NCBI GenBank assembly: GCA_017467335.1
Contig: JAFTSJ010000034.1
Location: forward strand, 1-56,971
Direction of reading: 5' to 3'
Source: Alphaproteobacteria bacterium
GTDB lineage: Bacteria > Pseudomonadota > Alphaproteobacteria > CAAHEQ01 > UBA3637
DNA length: 56,971 bases
Both the position numbers and the translations under genes were made by a program. Below, one piece after another: positions 46,321 through 54,489 of this stretch (position 1 is its first letter; each line of letters begins with the position of its first letter). Under the pieces are notes generated by a model. It searched no databases, had not been told where the DNA came from, and saw nothing but the letters and a program-made list of their open reading frames with translations.

Positions 46321-48138
46321 ATGTCAACACAAAAAATACCAACAACTAATCCAAAAGTTATCGATTGGGTTAATGAAATTGCCGATTTAACCGAACCGGA
46401 CGCTATTTATTGGTGTGACGGCTCACAAAAAGAAAGTGATGCCATCAATAATTTATTAGTGGAAAACGGTACATTTATTCCGCTTAATCCAAAAAAACGT
46501 CCCAATAGTTTTTTAGCCCGTTCCAACCCGAAAGATGTTGCTCGGGTTGAAGGCAGAACATTTATTTGTTCGGAAAAAGAACAAGATGCCGGTCCGACAA
46601 ATAATTGGGCTAATCCCAAAAAAATGAAAAAAATATTAAATAAACTGCTCAAAGGATGTATGAAAGGACGCACAATGTATGTTATTGCGTTTTCGATGGG
46701 TCCTTTGGGGTCTGATATTTCTCAAATCGGTATTGAAATAACTGATTCACCTTATGTTGTTGCGAATATGCGTATTATGACACGCATGGGACAAAAGGTA
46801 TGGAAAATATTGGGAGATAACGACTTTGTCAAATGCTTACATTCCGTTGGTGTTCCACTTAAAGAAGGGGAAAAAGACGTCCCTTGGCCCTGCAACCCTG
46901 AAAACACATATGTTACTCATTTCCCTGAAACAAAGGAAATTATCTCTTTCGGTAGCGGATATGGCGGAAATGCTTTATTAGGTAAAAAATGCTTGGCATT
47001 ACGTATTGCCAGCACCATGGCTCGTGATGATGGTTGGCTGGCAGAACATATGTTAATCGTAGGCTTGGAAAACAAAAAGTTGAAAATTAAATCGTATGTA
47101 ACAGCAGCCTTCCCCAGTGCCTGCGGTAAAACGAATATGGCCATGCTTATTCCACCAAAAGAAATGAAGGATTGGAAAGTATCAACAATCGGAGATGATA
47201 TTGCTTGGATTAAACCTAAAAAAGACGGGCGTTTATATGCCATCAATCCGGAAGCCGGATTTTTTGGCGTAGCCCCGGGAACATCTCCCAAAACAAACAA
47301 AAACGCCATTGAATCTTGCCGAGCCAATACAATTTTCACAAATGTTGCCTTAACGGATGACGGGGATGTTTGGTGGGAAGGATTAACAGACGAACCGCCT
47401 CAACACCTGATTGATTGGCAAGGCAATGATTGGACACCGCAATCTCAAACACCGGCTGCTCATCCTAACTCTCGCTTTACGGCTCCAGCCGGACAATGTC
47501 CGATTATTGACAAGAACTGGGAAAATCCGAACGGCGTTCCAATTGATGCTTTTATTGTCGGTGGTCGTTTAGCAACAAATGCTCCTTTGGTCTATCAAGC
47601 ATTCAATTGGCAACACGGTGTTTATTTAGCCAGCATAATGGGTTCCGAAAAAACCGCTGCCGCCGAAGGAAAAGCAGGTGAAATTCGCCGTGATCCGATG
47701 GCTATGCTTCCCTTTTGCGGATACAACATGGGCAATTATTGGAAACATTGGTTAGAAGTCGGAGCCAAAATAAAACACAAACCTCTTGTTTTCCGTGTTA
47801 ACTGGTTTAGGAAAAATGACAAAGGTCAATTTATGTGGCCTGGTTTTGGCAATAATATGCGTGTTTTGGAATGGATTGTCAAACGGACACAAGGTATAGC
47901 TAATGCTCAAGAAACAGTATTCGGTTGGTCTCCTAATTATCAAGATTTAACATGGAAAGGTCTATCTATGTCTGAAACGGATTTTGATGATTTAATGAAA
48001 ATTGATATTCCGACAGCATTAAAAGAAGTTGAATCTCAAAAAGAACATTACAAGCCGTTTAAAAAACAAAAAACATTGCCGATTGAACTGGAAGCAGAAA
48101 TTATATTACAAGAAGAACGGCTTAAAAAAGCACAATAA
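46321..48138 (+). CDS. pckG: Phosphoenolpyruvate carboxykinase (GTP-dependent)
   Basis: [67 protein letters not shown]. Confidence 0.96.
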
Positions 48139-48156
48139 AAAATCTCTATTTTTAGC

Positions 48157-48190
48157 AAACCTCCGTTAAAAAATTTTTTGACGGAGGTTT
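48157..48190 (+). terminator. Terminator-like hairpin after pckG
   Basis: aaacctccgttaaaaaa / ttttttgacggaggttt inverted repeat. Confidence 0.75.
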
Positions 48191-48221
48191 AATGATTGTC
48201 ATACACCTAAACAGATTTTGA

Positions 48222-48250
48222 TTGACAAAAAACATAAACCATAGTAAAAT
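48222..48250 (+). promoter_or_regulatory. Sigma70-type promoter of the AbiEii pair
   Basis: TTGACA-17 bp-TAAAAT ending 50 bp upstream of ATG 48301. Confidence 0.7.
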
Positions 48251-48300
48251 ATCATGGAAGTTATTGTTTTATCAAAAAAATAACACATTAAGGATGATAT

Positions 48301-49383
48301 ATGATACAAGGTAAAATATTTCAAAATTTATCACGCCGTTTGGGTATTCGTGCCGAAACATTAGAACGTGACTATGTGATGAATTTAATTTTGGATGCCT
48401 TTGCTCATTGTCCTTCAACACAAGATACATTCTTTTTCAAGGGTGGATGTTGTGTTCACAAATGTTTTTCTCAACATACATTTAATTCGACAAACCCAAA
48501 TCTTTCTTATTTTTTAAACGGACGTTTTTCATCAGATATTGATTTAACGGTTACACCGGATATGATGTCAACTGAAAAACTGACACAGGCATTTGAAGAA
48601 GTAAAAGAGTACGTTTATCATCGACACGGGCTGGTTATCGGTCAATTTTCATTTCCCATTCATGCAAACAACAAACAACAAATTGAAAATCGACTTAAAT
48701 CCAACTGTCGTGGTATTATTCATTTTGAAGGTCCGATGTATAATAAAAGATTCAATTCTCCTGCCATGAAATTTGATATTACTGCGGATGAACGGGTTGT
48801 GTTTTCACCTTATAAACGTTTAATTTTTCATCCTTATTCCAAAGAAGATGAAGAAATTGTTTTAGTGACCAAAACATACACGTTGCGTGATATTTTTGCT
48901 GAAAAAATACGGGCATTGTTTGAACGGTGTTCACCACGTGATTTATATGATTTGGTTATCTTACAATCCCATCCGGACTTGGACGAGTCACGACGAACAG
49001 GTATCGGATTATCCATCATTGAAAAATTTATTTTAAAACAAATGGATTATAATATCTCGATGAAACGATTGGAAACAACCCAAAGATACGGAACACCCCT
49101 ACTTGAGCTTTGTCGTACATCATGGGAAAATGCGTTGATGCGTCAAGTTGCTTCCATACCAAATTACGATGATTATATTCAACAATTACCCAACATTATT
49201 TCTTTTGCCCAACAATGTGTTTTACGGGCACAAAAAGAAATTGCTCATTATAATAATCGAACGCCGAAACAATTTTCAACAACTGTACACCGTCTGTTAC
49301 TTGAACAAACATTCAAGGGTTCTGATTTTCAAAAACAAATAAATCAGGTACTTGCAGAAGAAAAAAATGAGAGGTCAAAATGA
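48301..49383 (+). CDS. AbiEii/AbiGii-family (DUF1814) nucleotidyltransferase
   Basis: LERDY, FKGG, RFSSDIDLT, AEKIRAL, R..PRDLYD. Confidence 0.9.
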   Translation: MIQGKIFQNLSRRLGIRAETLERDYVMNLILDAFAHCPSTQDTFFFKGGCCVHKCFSQHTFNSTNPNLSYFLNGRFSSDIDLTVTPDMMSTEKLTQAFEEVKEYVYHRHGLVIGQFSFPIHANNKQQIENRLKSNCRGIIHFEGPMYNKRFNSPAMKFDITADERVVFSPYKRLIFHPYSKEDEEIVLVTKTYTLRDIFAEKIRALFERCSPRDLYDLVILQSHPDLDESRRTGIGLSIIEKFILKQMDYNISMKRLETTQRYGTPLLELCRTSWENALMRQVASIPNYDDYIQQLPNIISFAQQCVLRAQKEIAHYNNRTPKQFSTTVHRLLLEQTFKGSDFQKQINQVLAEEKNERSK

Positions 49384-50495
49384 TTGATAGAAAAGTTTTG
49401 CAAAATCTTTCTCGTCGAACCGGCATCCGAGCTGAATTGCTTGAAAAAGATTACGTAATGAATCTGCTTTTAGATGCGATTGCCAATTGTCCCTCGGCAC
49501 GTAATAAAATCTTCCTCAAAGGAGGAGCGGCCATATACAAATGCTATAATTTTCATGACAACACGCCACCAAATAAAAAAACACCCTCACCATTATTATT
49601 GAATATGCGGTTTACTGATGATTTAGACTTTACCGTCACACCAGATTTAATGTCAGAAGAAAAACTGCACACCGTTTTCAATGAAATCGCATAATACTTA
49701 TTGGAACGGCACGGATTGGTTATCAATCAATTTTCGTTTCCCATTCATAGCAACAAAAAACAAATGTTTGATGGCCATGAAAAACGTAATTGTCGAGGAT
49801 TTATTCACTTTGAAGGACCAATGTTTAACCCACGTTTTAATTCGCCAACATTAAAAATGGATATAACATCGGATGAACATATTGCTTTTTCACCGTATTT
49901 GTTACCGATAAAACACCCGTATCCAACACGATCGGATGAACAACCGTTGTTTGCACAAACATACACATTCCATGATATTTTAGCCGAAAAAATTCGAGCA
50001 TTATTCGAACGTGTTTCCGTTCGAGATTTATATGATTGTCTTTTTTTAATACAACATCCGCATATGGATGATGTGCGTAAAACAGGAATAGGCGTTGCCT
50101 TGATAGATAAATTAAAAGCTCGAAATTTGTCCCCACAAGTATCTTGGACATTATTTACACGCCGTGTTGATGAAAACAACACCCCTATTGATATCAGAAA
50201 TGAATTTCAATCACAATGGGAAAGTACATTAAGTCGTCAAATTGTTCATGTTCCGCCTTTTGATATTGCTTGGGAAAGAACAACTTACTTAATTGAATTT
50301 GCCCGAGAATGTTTAACCTTAGCCAAAGCACGTATTACTGACTTAAAACGTAAAAATCCGGATCAAGATATTCATGTCATTATTGATAATTTAATTGTAG
50401 AACAACGCAATAATGAAATCAAGACCATCAATCGCCAAGTTAATCAAACACTCAATTCAATGCAAAGTAAACAAACAAATAATCAAAAAGATTAA
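49380..50495 (+). pseudogene. Second AbiEii-family nucleotidyltransferase with one in-frame TAA (49692-49694)
   Basis: ORFs 49380..49694 and 49701..50495 are in the same frame; FNEIA*YLLERHGLVINQFSFP aligns with paralog FEEVKEYVYHRHGLVIGQFSFP; LKGG, RFTDDLD, AEKIRAL and RDLYD retained. Confidence 0.85.
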
Positions 50496-50646
50496 CTGAA
50501 AACACAATATAATATATACAAAACTCCTGACTAAAAATTCAGCAAGGGATTGATAATATAATACATAAAAAAAATACCTTAATAAAGAAACAAAAAAATG
50601 TTTTCACTTTTGTAAATAGCGTTTATTTCAAACACAGCAGTTCAAT

Positions 50647-50850
50647 TTAGTTTTTTGAACGATTAAGCAAGCTTAACATACTGGTTAAACCACCGGATGT
50701 TGCCCGTTGTCTATTCACAAAATAACTTTGGCGATTATTCATTGCACGAGCATATCGTTTTAAAAACGACCGTTCATATTCCCGAACTTCTGATGAATCC
50801 GAAATTTTTACCAGTGCCTGTAATAAATGTCTTCGTTTTTCAATGACCAT
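50647..50850 (-). CDS. Small basic hypothetical protein (67 aa)
   Basis: AAGAGG RBS and a TTGACA-17-TAGTAT promoter upstream. Confidence 0.6.
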   Translation of the reverse strand: MVIEKRRHLLQALVKISDSSEVREYERSFLKRYARAMNNRQSYFVNRQRATSGGLTSMLSLLNRSKN

Positions 50851-50890
50851 TTATCGCCTCTTAATCGTGTGATAAAAATCACTTCTTGCT

Positions 50891-50919
50891 ATACTATCAC
50901 AATTTTCTATAGCTGTCAA
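50891..50919 (-). promoter_or_regulatory. Sigma70-type promoter of the 67-aa gene
   Basis: Minus-strand TTGACA-gctatagaaaattgtga-TAGTAT. Confidence 0.65.
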
Positions 50920-51040
50920 ATGAATATTTAAACTTTCAAATAACAAAAATTATCGCAAAATGTTTCTTTTTTTTGTTTCTTTTTACATGGGAATATGCTA
51001 TACATCTCCTATCTTTAATTGATAACGATAGGAAAGAAAA

Positions 51041-52132
51041 ATGGAACAACAAATTAAAGAAATGAAACAAACACTTATCCAAGCCATTCAACAAGCAGAA
51101 AATCTTGTTGCACTTGATGAAATTCGTGTCAAATCTCTTGGAAAAAACGGATGTATAACCGGTTTAATGAAATCCATCGGCAAATTAAGTGCTGAAGAAC
51201 GCAAATCGGCCGGTCAAATTTTAAATGTTTTTAAAGATGAAATTGCCACACTTCTTGACGATAAAAAACAAACGCTTGAATTGCAAGAAATGAATGAACG
51301 TTTGGCCTCACAAACAGTTGATATTACATTACCTGTTCGCCCTAACACAAATATTGGTCGCATTCATCCCGTATCACAAGTCACGGAAGAAATGTTAACT
51401 ATCTTTGCACAAATGGGATTTGAAGTTGCCGAAGGTCCGGATATCGAAGACGATTTCCATAATTTTGAAGCCTTAAATATTCCGGCTGCACACCCTGCCC
51501 GTCAAATGCAAGCAACATTTTTTATGGAAAATACAACGGATAAAGTATTAAGAACGCAAACATCCGGTGTTCAAATCAGAACAATGGAAAATAAAAAACC
51601 ACCGATTAAAATTGTTGCTCCCGGTCGTACATACCGCCGTGATTATGATATGACTCATACACCGATGTTTCATCAAATTGAAGGGTTGGTTATTGATACG
51701 GAAACAAACTTGGCTCACTTAAAATCAACATTGGTTGAATTTATGAAATTATTTTTTGAAACAGATGATGTTGCCTTACGTTTCCGTCCATCTTATTTTC
51801 CATTTACCGAACCGTCATATGAAGCTGATGTCGGTTGTTCACGGGAAAATGGGGAATTTAAAATAAAATCCGGTGCCGGTTGGTGTGAGTTATTGGGGTG
51901 TGGCATGGTACATCCGAATGTGCTACGCAATTGCGGATTGGATCCAAATATTTATCAGGGTTTTGCGTTTGGTTGCGGGATAGACAGATTTGCCATGTTA
52001 AAGTACGGTATTCCTGATTTACGCAGTTTCTTTGATGCTGATATGCGTTGGATACGACATTACGGATTTTTACCGTTAGATATACCGACAATTACCAGTG
52101 GATTAAGTTTAAACGGAGGATTAAAACGATGA
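51041..52132 (+). CDS. pheS: Phenylalanine-tRNA ligase alpha subunit
   Basis: HNFEALN, HPAR.MQ.TF, LRTQTS, THTPMFHQIEG, RPSYFPFTEPS, GCGMVHP. Confidence 0.97.
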   Translation: MEQQIKEMKQTLIQAIQQAENLVALDEIRVKSLGKNGCITGLMKSIGKLSAEERKSAGQILNVFKDEIATLLDDKKQTLELQEMNERLASQTVDITLPVRPNTNIGRIHPVSQVTEEMLTIFAQMGFEVAEGPDIEDDFHNFEALNIPAAHPARQMQATFFMENTTDKVLRTQTSGVQIRTMENKKPPIKIVAPGRTYRRDYDMTHTPMFHQIEGLVIDTETNLAHLKSTLVEFMKLFFETDDVALRFRPSYFPFTEPSYEADVGCSRENGEFKIKSGAGWCELLGCGMVHPNVLRNCGLDPNIYQGFAFGCGIDRFAMLKYGIPDLRSFFDADMRWIRHYGFLPLDIPTITSGLSLNGGLKR

Positions 52133-54489
52133 AAATTTCTTTAAGAGCACTCAAAAAATATCTAGATACAACTGCCTCTACACAGGAAATTGCCGATACG
52201 TTAACATCTATCGGTTTGGAAGTTGAAGAAATTATTGATAATTCAGCTTCATTGGCTCCGTTTCATATTGCTGAAATTAAAACGGTTGAAAATCATCCAA
52301 ACGCAGATAAGTTACATATTTTAGGTGTTTTTACAGGCCATGAAATGTTACAAATTGTGTGTGGGGCTCCAAATGTTCGGGTTGGCATGAAATCTGTTTT
52401 AGCACGTGAAGGAGATTTAATCCCGTTATACAATGAACGCTTAAAAAAAGGAATGATTCGAGGCGTTGAAAGTATGGGAATGCTTTGTTCCGAAAAAGAA
52501 TTGGGTATCAGCGATAATCACGAAGGTATCATTGATTTACAAACGGATTTACCGGCCGGAACACCGGTAACAGATGTGTTGGCCAGTGATATTATTTTAG
52601 ATGTTAATGTTACCCCTAATCGAGGTGATTGCTTTGGTATTAAAGGCATTGCACGAGATTTATCGGCAACCGGTATCGGTACATTCATCTCCCATGATGT
52701 ACAGGAAATAAAGGGACATTTTACATCTCCCGTACAAGTACATATCCACGATGAAGATTGTCCCCAATTTGTCGGTCGATACATTAAAAATGTTAAAAAT
52801 GGAGAAAGTCCGAAATGGATGCAGGAATTTTTAATTTCAATGGGAATGCGTCCTATTTCTGCCTTAGTTGACATTACAAATTATCTCAACATAGCTGAAT
52901 GTCGTCCGCTTCATGTATTTGATGCCGATAAATTAAACGGTGATTTGATTGTTCGTAAAGCACAACAAGGTGAAAAAATCCTTGCTTTAAATGAAAAAGA
53001 ATACGAATTGACGGATAAAATGACTGTTATTGCCGATAATAGCGGTGCATTAAGTATTGCCGGTGTTATGGGGGGAGAAGCAACCGGTTGTACAAAAGAT
53101 ACAGTTAATGTCTTTTTAGAATCTGCTTATTTCACACCGGTTTCAATTGCCCATACCGGACGAGAATTAAATGCAGAATCAGATTCTCGCACACGATTCG
53201 AACGGGGGATTGATCCGGCCTCACAATTGATGGGAAACAATATTGCAACGCAATTAATTTTGGATATCTGTGGTGGTGAAGCATCAGATATCGTCATTGC
53301 CGGTCATGAACCAAACTGGCACCATGAAATTGATTTTGATTTCGGATTGGTCAAACGGTTGTGTGGATTAGATATTCCACATCAAAAAATGGTTGATATC
53401 TTGGAAAAACTGGGTTTCACAGTGAACGAAACAAAAATCAGTGTTCCTTCATGGCGAACAAATGACGTTAAAGAAGGCGCTGATTTAGTCGAAGAAATTG
53501 TTCGCATTAACGGATTGGATGATTTACCAACAATGCCGTTGCGTCCGAATGAATTACCGTTAAGTATTTTGTTGCCTCATCAAAAGCGTGAAAGTGCTAT
53601 CAGACGGGCATTGGCAGCCCGTGGATTGAATCAAGCCATTACCTGGTCTTTTATGGATTCAAAATTGGCTCAATATTTCAATTCAAAAGGGATTCGAATT
53701 GCTAATCCGATTGCTTCTGATTTAGATGAAATGCGTCCTTCATTGGTTCCCAATCTGTTATCAGCCATCCAACGCAATCAAGACCGAGGTATTCACGATG
53801 TTCAATTATTTGAAGTCGGACCGGAATTTTATTCTACAACACCCAAAGAACAACGCATGGTTGCCTGTGGTGTCAGAGCCGGTCACTTTACACCACGTCA
53901 CTTCCTTGAAAAAATGCGAGATGTTGATGTATTCGATGCAAAAGCCGATGCATTAGATGCTTTGGCCTCCATTGATGCACCTCAAAATTTACAGGTTGTG
54001 CGTAAGGCTCCGTCTTGGTACCATCCGGGTCGTTCTGGGGCTTTAACACTCGGTAAAAACGTTGTTGCCTACTTTGGCGAAATTCATCCGATGATATTAA
54101 AAGTTTTTGATATCAAAACACCTGTTGTTGCTTTTGAAATTTATATGGATAACGTACCACAAGCACGGGCAAAATCAAAATCTCAAAAACTGCTTAAAAT
54201 GTCAAATTTAATGCCATTGACACGAGATTTTGCCTTTGTTGCCGACCAAACCATTGAAGCCGGTAAGTTAATGGCAACAATTCAAAATGTTGATAAAGAA
54301 AAAATCACAAATGTTTCTTTATTTGATGTTTATGAAGGCGATAAATTACCGCAAGGGAAAAAATCCATTGCCCTTCAGGTAACAATTTGGCCGTCAGATA
54401 AAACAATGACGGACAAGGAAATTGAAATATTAAGCACGCAAATTATCAATGCCGTTCATAAAGCAACCGGTGCGGAGTTGCGTTCTTAA
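52129..54489 (+). CDS. pheT: Phenylalanine-tRNA ligase beta subunit
   Basis: HPNADKL, VCGAPN, TPNRGDC, RFERGID, RDFAFV, FDVYEG; ATGA overlap with pheS. Confidence 0.97.
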   Translation: MKISLRALKKYLDTTASTQEIADTLTSIGLEVEEIIDNSASLAPFHIAEIKTVENHPNADKLHILGVFTGHEMLQIVCGAPNVRVGMKSVLAREGDLIPLYNERLKKGMIRGVESMGMLCSEKELGISDNHEGIIDLQTDLPAGTPVTDVLASDIILDVNVTPNRGDCFGIKGIARDLSATGIGTFISHDVQEIKGHFTSPVQVHIHDEDCPQFVGRYIKNVKNGESPKWMQEFLISMGMRPISALVDITNYLNIAECRPLHVFDADKLNGDLIVRKAQQGEKILALNEKEYELTDKMTVIADNSGALSIAGVMGGEATGCTKDTVNVFLESAYFTPVSIAHTGRELNAESDSRTRFERGIDPASQLMGNNIATQLILDICGGEASDIVIAGHEPNWHHEIDFDFGLVKRLCGLDIPHQKMVDILEKLGFTVNETKISVPSWRTNDVKEGADLVEEIVRINGLDDLPTMPLRPNELPLSILLPHQKRESAIRRALAARGLNQAITWSFMDSKLAQYFNSKGIRIANPIASDLDEMRPSLVPNLLSAIQRNQDRGIHDVQLFEVGPEFYSTTPKEQRMVACGVRAGHFTPRHFLEKMRDVDVFDAKADALDALASIDAPQNLQVVRKAPSWYHPGRSGALTLGKNVVAYFGEIHPMILKVFDIKTPVVAFEIYMDNVPQARAKSKSQKLLKMSNLMPLTRDFAFVADQTIEAGKLMATIQNVDKEKITNVSLFDVYEGDKLPQGKKSIALQVTIWPSDKTMTDKEIEILSTQIINAVHKATGAELRS

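Follow-up and report, generated by a model that had tools for sequence, protein, structure and literature searches.

The question raised by this locus is whether two toxin genes stand in a bacterial genome without an antitoxin. The window, that is, the whole 56,971-nucleotide stretch of DNA that was analyzed, is contig C21 of G000, an alphaproteobacterial genome assembled into 46 contigs (1.32 Mb, 93% complete), and between pckG and pheS it carries two tandem genes of the AbiEii/MenT family, here called A and B. A sequence-only reading of this stretch had taken them for an undescribed module of two nucleotidyltransferases (NTases) without an AbiEi antitoxin. Our analysis of the genome and its relatives suggests that they probably belong to a three-gene AbiE/MenAT (type VII) module, composed of a short AbiEi, AbiEii-A, and AbiEii-B, from which the antitoxin gene has been split off. 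The records related to the window are metagenome-assembled genomes of uncultured Alphaproteobacteria, and DNA near-identical to it was found in animal gut metagenomes from nine studies, with no RNA run among those listed.

Gene A (48301-49383, + strand) is intact and encodes an AbiEii/MenT-type (DUF1814) NTase toxin of 360 amino acids, and its paralog, gene B (49380-50495, + strand), has 371 codons in one frame that is broken by a nonsense codon. The stop of A and the start of B overlap in an ATGA (49380-49383, + strand), and the two proteins show 46% identity across 363 aligned positions. Both are AbiEii proteins by hidden Markov model and motifs, and the fold is seen in the model of A. Against Pfam PF08843 (AbiEii), for which the cut-off is 22.5 bits, A scored 69.7 bits (E = 4.7e-19) and B, read through its stop, 71.8 bits; the C-terminal piece of B scored 47.8 bits (E = 2.3e-12), and the N-terminal piece, at 21.6 bits, fell slightly below the cut-off. 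The PADLOC AbiEii models matched A with an E value of 4.9e-49 and B with 6.8e-42, and an NCBIfam search of A and B returned no family.

In an alignment of nine copies (A, B, and single-copy toxins), the KGG, R-x-S/T-x-D-x-D, DIT-x-DE, and AEK-x-R motifs and the D-x-x-D of RDLYD were invariant (K47, G48, G49, D79, D81, D159, D163, E164, E201, K202, D214, and D217; motifs I-IV are named following PMC3985639), with R213, the first residue of RDLYD, varying among some B copies. Both paralogs retain all catalytic motifs in each of the four species that carry the pair. D79 and D81 are the catalytic residues of A, and all nine copies have a Ser or Thr at position -2 relative to the first catalytic Asp (R-F-S-x-D-x-D in A-type and R-F/L-T/S-x-D-x-D in B-type copies), with S77 as the predicted phosphoacceptor of A. 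From the spacing we infer that this position is equivalent to S78 of MenT3, whose S78/D82 spacing was taken from the mutant names of structure entries, and to T65, the phosphoacceptor reported for AbiEii (bioRxiv 10.64898/2026.01.19.700257).

The AlphaFold2 model of A (predicted local distance difference test [pLDDT] 93.8, predicted TM-score 0.91) had only MenT4 or MenT3 among its top 10 Foldseek matches in the PDB (probability 1.00, TM-score by target [TMt] 0.62-0.66), the best being MenT4 6Y56 (E = 1.3e-8) and MenT3/TglT 6J7S (E = 2.2e-8). The model ends in an extension of three helices (residues 296-320, 325-339, and 341-359). In place of the usual GGT, A has GGC and B has GGA, and the spacer between KC and RF has a median length of 20 residues (range, 18-34) in the 24 closest homologs and measures 5 residues in 35/36 more distant ones, the remaining row being empty there; by this alignment, the insertion of ~15 residues appears to be clade-specific. 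In all of these features, namely the diverged paralogs coupled by ATGA, the conserved motifs, the lost threonine of GGT, the insertion, and the helical extension, the sequence-only reading was borne out, as it was for the near-consensus promoter described below and for the ~160 bp that separate A from pckG; this spacer, 162 bp from the pckG stop (48138) to the start of A, has no open reading frame and leaves no space for an antitoxin.

The absence of an AbiEi held for the locus and failed for the genome. A genome-wide search with the PADLOC model PDLC02271 found one intact AbiEi in G000, a gene for a 159-amino-acid protein on contig C33 (G000:C33:6100-6579, - strand; E = 1.1e-11), and also one in G009, a sister species of the same genus. 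Given that the match is limited to positions ~70-210 of the 263 in the model, this short AbiEi appears to be the antitoxicity (C-terminal) domain (CTD) alone, without the winged helix-turn-helix (wHTH). Its AlphaFold2 model (pLDDT 91.1) likewise has no wHTH domain, and the protein also lacks the C-terminal tail of ~45 residues found in full-length relatives. The best PDB match of the model was the AbiEi antitoxin 6Y8Q of Streptococcus agalactiae (E = 1.1e-7, TM-score by query [TMq] 0.58). By sequence, a 34-row AbiEi profile that includes short forms matched 6Y8Q and chain A of 9HLO (E = 1.3e-6), and a profile of six short AbiEi proteins alone found nothing meaningful among PDB sequences (best E = 0.69). 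With the AbiEi profile A5, the C33 gene was the sole match in G000, at an E value of 1.8e-51 that is circular since the sequence is part of the profile, and a word-based homolog search with the short AbiEi returned only the G009 protein and one copy with 99% identity.

Open reading frames of ~150 amino acids also lie directly upstream of the toxin or toxins in G012 (same genus), G023 (another genus), and G022; they are unrecognized by Pfam, and PADLOC AbiEi models matched them with E values down to 4.4e-19. The C33 protein is 81% identical to its counterpart in G009, 49% in G012, 45% in G023, and 28% in G022, compared to 84%, 56%, 59%, and 45%, respectively, for toxin A, and its gene is orthologous to the toxin-linked short AbiEi of G012, G023, G022, G041, G062, and G063. 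The C33 gene has a strong ribosome-binding site (AGGAGG) and follows an ankyrin-repeat gene after a 22-bp gap, and its stop codon (TGA) shares bases with the rnhA start (ATG). The sequence-only reading had itself proposed a genome search for AbiEi and had allowed for a cognate AbiEi elsewhere; such a gene is present, and we consider it very probable from these comparisons that A and B have their cognate antitoxin in the C33 protein. The headline of toxins with no antitoxin is an artifact of the view from a single window and of weak Pfam coverage. As a separate observation, the short AbiEi model also aligned with NTase folds, among them MenT1 (chain 8AN5_B, TMq 0.63), TM1012, and ANT(2'')-Ia, which raises the possibility that the antitoxicity domain of AbiEi is a degenerate NTase-like fold.

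Toxins and antitoxin occur together across the family. When an AbiEii and an AbiEi profile were run over 80 family genomes, each matched nine. Intact toxins were found in eight (G000, G009, G012, G023, G022, G041, G062, and G063), every one of which carries exactly one AbiEi; the short AbiEi lies directly upstream of the toxin in six of the eight (G012, G023, G022, G041, G062, and G063), and toxin and antitoxin are on separate contigs solely in G000 and G009. G005 has toxin remnants only and no AbiEi: locus L019 (G005:C1, 6265-6952) holds an A fragment of 99 amino acids followed by a C-terminal fragment of B of 146 amino acids. This site is syntenic to the G012 module and appears to be a deletion remnant of the three-gene module. 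G002, which yielded no AbiEii, has a distant AbiEi-like match at a contig start (G002:C24:481-837, E = 1.1e-10), and this could be an orphan antitoxin or belong to a different AbiEi family.

With toxin A as the query against 41 related genomes, the tandem pair was found in three (G009, G012, and G023); G022 has one toxin copy, and G005 has remnants. The pair is therefore present in four species of two genera, the window's included, which speaks for the conservation that the sequence-only reading had wished to see checked. It stands between pckG and pheS in G009 as in the window, with an A that is 84% identical and an intact B, and in a different genomic context in G012. We also drew 36 related loci from a species collection, counting the window separately. 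An open reading frame that matches the AbiEi profile lies directly upstream in 32 of them, three of the other four have no upstream DNA, and only L032, the G009 locus, has upstream DNA but no AbiEi. Distant relatives combine a full-length AbiEi (248-301 codons, stop to stop) with a single toxin; the short AbiEi with long toxins is restricted to the window's clade (L033-L036), tandem toxins to L032-L034, and the single-toxin locus L035 also carries the short AbiEi. What remains of the proposed two-NTase module is a pair that is real, conserved, and unusual (3/36 loci plus the window); its antitoxin-free premise was not supported.

The order of ankyrin-repeat gene, AbiEi, and rnhA is common to G000 and G009. 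Given that rnhA follows hpf-ptsN in G012 and G001, with no AbiEi there, the relocation of AbiEi appears to be a derived feature that G000 and G009 have in common. We propose that the ancestral operon had the order short AbiEi, A, B, as is still the case in G012 and G023, and that a rearrangement in the lineage of G000 and G009 would have parted the antitoxin gene from the toxins, leaving the former between the ankyrin-repeat gene and rnhA on C33 and the latter behind their own promoter. The four B copies group together (support 97/99) in a maximum-likelihood tree, in which the single-copy forms (G022 and L035) make a separate clade; given that the B clade includes G023, the duplication into A and B predates the split of the two genera. 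The ratio of nonsynonymous to synonymous substitution rates (dN/dS) between G000 and G009 was 0.081 for A (dS, 1.22), 0.130 for AbiEi (dS, 0.96), and 0.235 for B (dS, 0.34), and 0.02-0.06 for pckG, pheS, rnhA, and bamD. A and AbiEi appear to have stayed under purifying selection since the split of the two species, at a dS of ~1. The one-off decaying duplication that the sequence-only reading had considered is not what we found, given the age of the duplication, the dN/dS of A (0.08), and a stop codon in B that is confined to the strain level.

This stop is an in-frame TAA at codon 105 of B (49692-49694, + strand), where G009 and contigs of two other studies have CAA (Gln), and it splits B into pieces of 104 and 264 amino acids, the second starting from a TTG at 49701. 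The sequence-only reading alludes to it among its proposed checks, as a stop-repaired copy, and not in its title. We surveyed contigs of four public runs over positions 48100-50600. Both runs of study P1 have T at 49692 (X1, which is possibly the source sample, and X4, with a 625-nt contig that shows no differences), and C is found in X5 of study P2 (depth 11, one contig over the entire stretch, with 10 substitutions and 1 insertion) and, with less weight because the depth is 3.9 and the site lies 39 nt from the contig end, in X6 of study P3. Given that G009 and near-identical strains of two other studies have CAA, the nonsense codon is a recent strain-level loss rather than a trait of the species or of the module, and intact B orthologs are present in G009, G012, and G023. 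Recoding or an alternative genetic code was considered for this TAA and rejected, since pckG itself ends in TAA and the orthologs and other strains have CAA. With B knocked out by the recent CAA-to-TAA change, only A would be able to act in the window's strain.

The T at 49692 is also one of only three differences from G009 in a 463-bp tract of gene B (49428-49890, + strand) whose flanks are ~82% identical. Across codons 1-104 of B, dS is 0.046, compared to 1.22 for gene A, and the low dS of B as a whole is due to this tract. Two tracts in pheT (53300-53430 and 53900-54200) are 99-100% identical to G009 in surroundings of ~82%. The near-identical tracts in gene B and pheT are most simply explained by recent recombination between these two congeneric species, and an assembly artifact on the G009 side is less likely.

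How could toxins be held in check by an antitoxin encoded elsewhere? By analogy, A and B would be NTases that add nucleotides to the 3' ends of tRNAs and so halt translation, and the short AbiEi would bind each of them across the active site and make the toxin phosphorylate its own Ser/Thr (S77 in A and the matching Thr in B), thereby turning it off. Given that neutralization of this kind would be covalent rather than stoichiometric, an antitoxin that acts in trans and is transcribed separately could suffice, and because the antitoxin lacks the wHTH across the whole clade, no autoregulation would have been lost on relocation. For this induced auto-phosphorylation, which is modeled on S. agalactiae AbiE and Mycobacterium tuberculosis MenAT, we hold the chances to be evenly balanced. 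The AbiEi CTD has been described as sufficient for neutralization (PMC3985639); AbiEi is reported to bind AbiEii 1:1 via its CTD, to occlude the active site, and to induce auto-phosphorylation at T65 (bioRxiv 10.64898/2026.01.19.700257); and MenA1 is reported to induce auto-phosphorylation of MenT1 at T39 (PMC11375011). The beginning of the short AbiEi corresponds to the point from which S. agalactiae AbiEi contacts its toxin (D56 onwards, with the contacts given in bioRxiv 10.64898/2026.01.19.700257), and the position of a loop is kept, with T36-D37 aligning with T84-D85 of 9HLO chain A. Co-folding of A with the short AbiEi gave a median ipSAE of 0.41 (runs of 0.02, 0.63, and 0.41), compared to 0.10 for the best control, which lends weak support; the runs agreed in at least 85% of contacts, with a partner pLDDT of at least 83. 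In the benchmark, the mark was reached by 116/157 solved complexes and 2/215 mismatched pairs, and the passes at 0.60 or below comprise only 18 of the 157 solved complexes and both of the mismatches that passed. The pass may reflect memory, since a like complex (9HLO) has been solved.

Several observations weigh against a split three-gene module. Five Pfam AbiEi models (PF13338, PF09407, PF09952, PF11459, and PF17194) found nothing above cut-off in the whole genome, the best match being 13.1 bits (E = 0.17) within a 451-amino-acid frame on contig C1, and the C33 protein itself has no Pfam match. These nulls at first looked like the lack of an antitoxin and were overturned by the PDLC02271 match, and the AbiEi assignment rests on the PADLOC models, the profile and fold matches, and the synteny in relatives. 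The toxin and antitoxin loci are at least ~11 kb apart, a distance taken from contig ends in the 46-contig assembly. Given its patchy distribution (9/80) and the mere remnants kept in G005, the module appears to be dispensable, and B has a dN/dS above that of A in addition to being broken in the window's strain. The loop triplet D85-E86-I87, which is needed for the full activity of the S. agalactiae protein, is not conserved among the short AbiEi proteins (D-S-K in G000, H-L-C in G012, A-S-F in G023, and D-E-L in G022 and L035), and one of the three co-fold runs scored close to zero, at the 0.02 given above. Lastly, PP2C_2 (PF13672), the single phosphatase family looked for, was not found in the 93%-complete genome, and this empty search leaves no candidate enzyme for dephosphorylation.

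We considered that the pair could instead be self-contained, with B as a paralogous inhibitor or a heterodimer partner of A and the C33 protein irrelevant to both. In favor of this, the ATGA-coupled tandem arrangement has been kept in four species, A and B have been separate lineages since before the genus split, and the window's strain has lost B without losing A. An inactive inhibitor would not be expected to retain every catalytic residue, as B does in 4/4 species, and the intact A in a strain without a functional B indicates that A is tolerated alone. Single-toxin relatives (G022, G041, G062, G063, and L035) carry the same short AbiEi, so that the antitoxin would predate the pair and not depend on it, and none of the eight intact-toxin genomes is without an AbiEi, which leaves a self-contained pair very unlikely. 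A decaying remnant, in which the rearrangement broke the module, B is dead, and A and the orphan AbiEi no longer function, would account for the nonsense codon, the patchy distribution in 9/80 family genomes, the fused remnant at the G012-type site of G005, the relaxed dN/dS of B (0.235), and the small genomes (1.3 Mb). Decay sits poorly, however, with a split layout that is common to G009 at a dS of ~1, with A (0.081) and AbiEi (0.130) intact under purifying selection, with an intact B in G009 and in near-identical strains of two other studies, and with the strong AGGAGG of the AbiEi gene, and we regard it as distinctly unlikely.

A split three-gene module could also serve ends other than growth control or addiction. 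One proposal is abortive-infection defense against phages under the trans-acting AbiEi, in which having two toxins would allow a broader set of phages to be sensed or of tRNAs to be attacked. The first description of AbiE was as an Abi system of lactococci, and RlegTA and SanaTA are reported to affect phage T7 (PMC3985639 and bioRxiv 10.64898/2026.01.19.700257); all PADLOC matches are to AbiE defense models, and the near-identical tract in B suggests recent interspecies exchange. In the same preprint, however, S. agalactiae AbiE is reported not to have protected against any of 32 coliphages, and the locus lies amid housekeeping genes (pckG, pheST, and rnhA) and not in a defense island; the similar tracts in pheT mean that the B tract need not reflect selection. 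We consider a defense role unlikely. Unlikely, too, is a more elaborate scenario in which the antitoxin was captured by a housekeeping operon and translationally coupled to rnhA while the toxins came to rest on a constitutive promoter, which would make the system a host-wired translation brake with two outputs. Catalytic neutralization may have freed the module from toxin-antitoxin linkage, and the two toxins would differ in tRNA or nucleotide specificity; output would be set by the ratio of the housekeeping transcript to the toxin transcript, turning a selfish addiction cassette into a host-wired one, and the near-identical tract in B would mark an ongoing exchange of toxin specificity between species.

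The surroundings of the two loci offer some further detail. Downstream of pckG (46321-48138), an inverted repeat (CCTCCGT, a 14-nt loop, and ACGGAGG; 48160-48166 and 48181-48187, + strand) is likely the pckG terminator and would part pckG from the toxin genes. The terminator scan omitted this repeat, its loop being above 8 nt, and G009 has a comparable repeat at the equivalent place after pckG. The sigma-70-like promoter before gene A (TTGACA-17-TAAAAT; 48222-48250, + strand) matches the consensus at 11/12 positions and is the top promoter-like site within 47900-51100, an AT-rich region with 25 such sites compared to 15.1 ± 4.2 in shuffles. Its -35 box and the AAAACA that follows are kept upstream of A in G009 and are also found in the spacer between AbiEi and A in G012; this match, although short, hints that gene A had its own promoter already before the antitoxin was split off. 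An Rfam scan of 47500-51500 gave two sub-threshold matches judged to be chance; one of these, a CRISPR-DR6 match across the stop codon of B (49675-49707), was rejected at 22.3 bits, the gathering score being 39. An open reading frame of 67 amino acids (50647-50850, - strand) without a Pfam match lies between gene B and pheS; the DNA there is ~87% identical to G009, the remaining spacer (50492-50671) aligns poorly, and the frame could represent a short conserved gene. Near both the C33 antitoxin locus (L025, G000:C33, 3-2870) and the G012 module (L016, 13204-14499) are very large cysteine-rich repeat proteins that contain numerous CxxC-type spacings. The sole mobile-element-like gene near any copy is at L017 (G023:C7, 11774-12208), ~3 kb downstream of the G023 module, which we take to be an IS1 InsA-like zinc-finger gene.

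These findings bear on how such systems are detected. Finders of toxin-antitoxin and defense systems rely on adjacent AbiEi and AbiEii genes and on Pfam AbiEi models, and both cues fail here: the toxins look like orphans because their antitoxin, which has no wHTH and goes unmatched in Pfam, is encoded on a different contig. Before "orphan" AbiEii genes in other genomes are called antitoxin-less, they should be searched again with antitoxin profiles of higher sensitivity. A pair that looks functional after its separation from the antitoxin is also a natural test of whether type VII covalent neutralization relaxes the constraints of linkage and stoichiometry that apply to sequestration systems, and a conserved, diverged toxin pair with one minimal antitoxin offers a compact system in which to study how the specificity of MenT/AbiEii toxins diversifies.

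In comparison with known systems, the toxins belong to the same family (PF08843/DUF1814) as those of the AbiE systems of S. agalactiae and Lactococcus lactis (6Y8Q and 9HLO), with the same NTase motifs and Ser/Thr phosphoacceptor position, even though sequence identity to the toxin chain is low (9HLO chain B, E = 8.4e-4), and the short AbiEi shares the C-terminal fold of S. agalactiae AbiEi (6Y8Q), with a profile match to 9HLO chain A. The antitoxin gene of S. agalactiae AbiE is described as lying directly upstream of the toxin gene with a 4-nt overlap (PMC3985639), and the same arrangement is seen in G023. Unlike in AbiE, the antitoxin here is the antitoxicity domain only, without the wHTH and the C-terminal tail of ~45 residues; the single toxin is replaced by two diverged ones, each 70-90 residues longer, with the insertion of ~15 residues before the catalytic strand and the three-helix C-terminal extension; and the antitoxin lies outside the toxin operon in G000 and G009. 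The bicistronic layout of AbiE and MenAT, with the antitoxin upstream, is absent from G000 and present in G012, G023, G022, G041, G062, and G063, and the N-terminal wHTH that autoregulates the operon in those systems is absent from the short AbiEi. MenAT3 and MenAT4 of M. tuberculosis (MenT3/TglT Rv1045 and MenT4 Rv2826c) provide the closest structures to toxin A (6Y56, E = 1.3e-8, TMt 0.62; 6J7x series, TMt 0.64-0.66), at 12-14% identity. The MenAT antitoxins are described as COG5340-type, and phosphorylation of the active-site Ser as neutralizing the toxin (PMC7205606 and PMC11375011); the Men systems, which are bicistronic, encode full-length antitoxins of two domains and have neither tandem toxins nor a split layout.

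In our search of the literature, which was not exhaustive, we came across no account of AbiEii genes in tandem or of an AbiE system that has been split; what is described for mycoplasmas is orphan antitoxin copies, not tandem toxins (PMC8562856). SanaTA and SdenTA of Shewanella, as presented in bioRxiv 10.64898/2026.01.19.700257, have short antitoxins of 136 and 174 amino acids with a distant likeness to COG5340, so a CTD-only AbiEi is not new in itself. These systems, which we compared by description only, have DUF1814 toxins in adjacent two-gene arrangements, unlike the split layout here. The nearest relatives of A outside its clade are AbiEii-WYL fusions (PF08843 plus PF13280, ~470-490 amino acids, 27-32% identity), which are common in metagenomes; in one of them (L038, 4001-5425), a full-length AbiEi lies upstream. 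Neither A nor B has a WYL domain, and the C-terminal extension in the A model is purely helical. The features that depart from textbook AbiE are the CTD-only antitoxin, short COG5340-like antitoxins such as SanaA being known already, the tandem diverged toxins, and the unlinked antitoxin. Collectively, these comparisons place the locus as an unusual layout of a known AbiE/MenAT-type system and not as a new kind of system.

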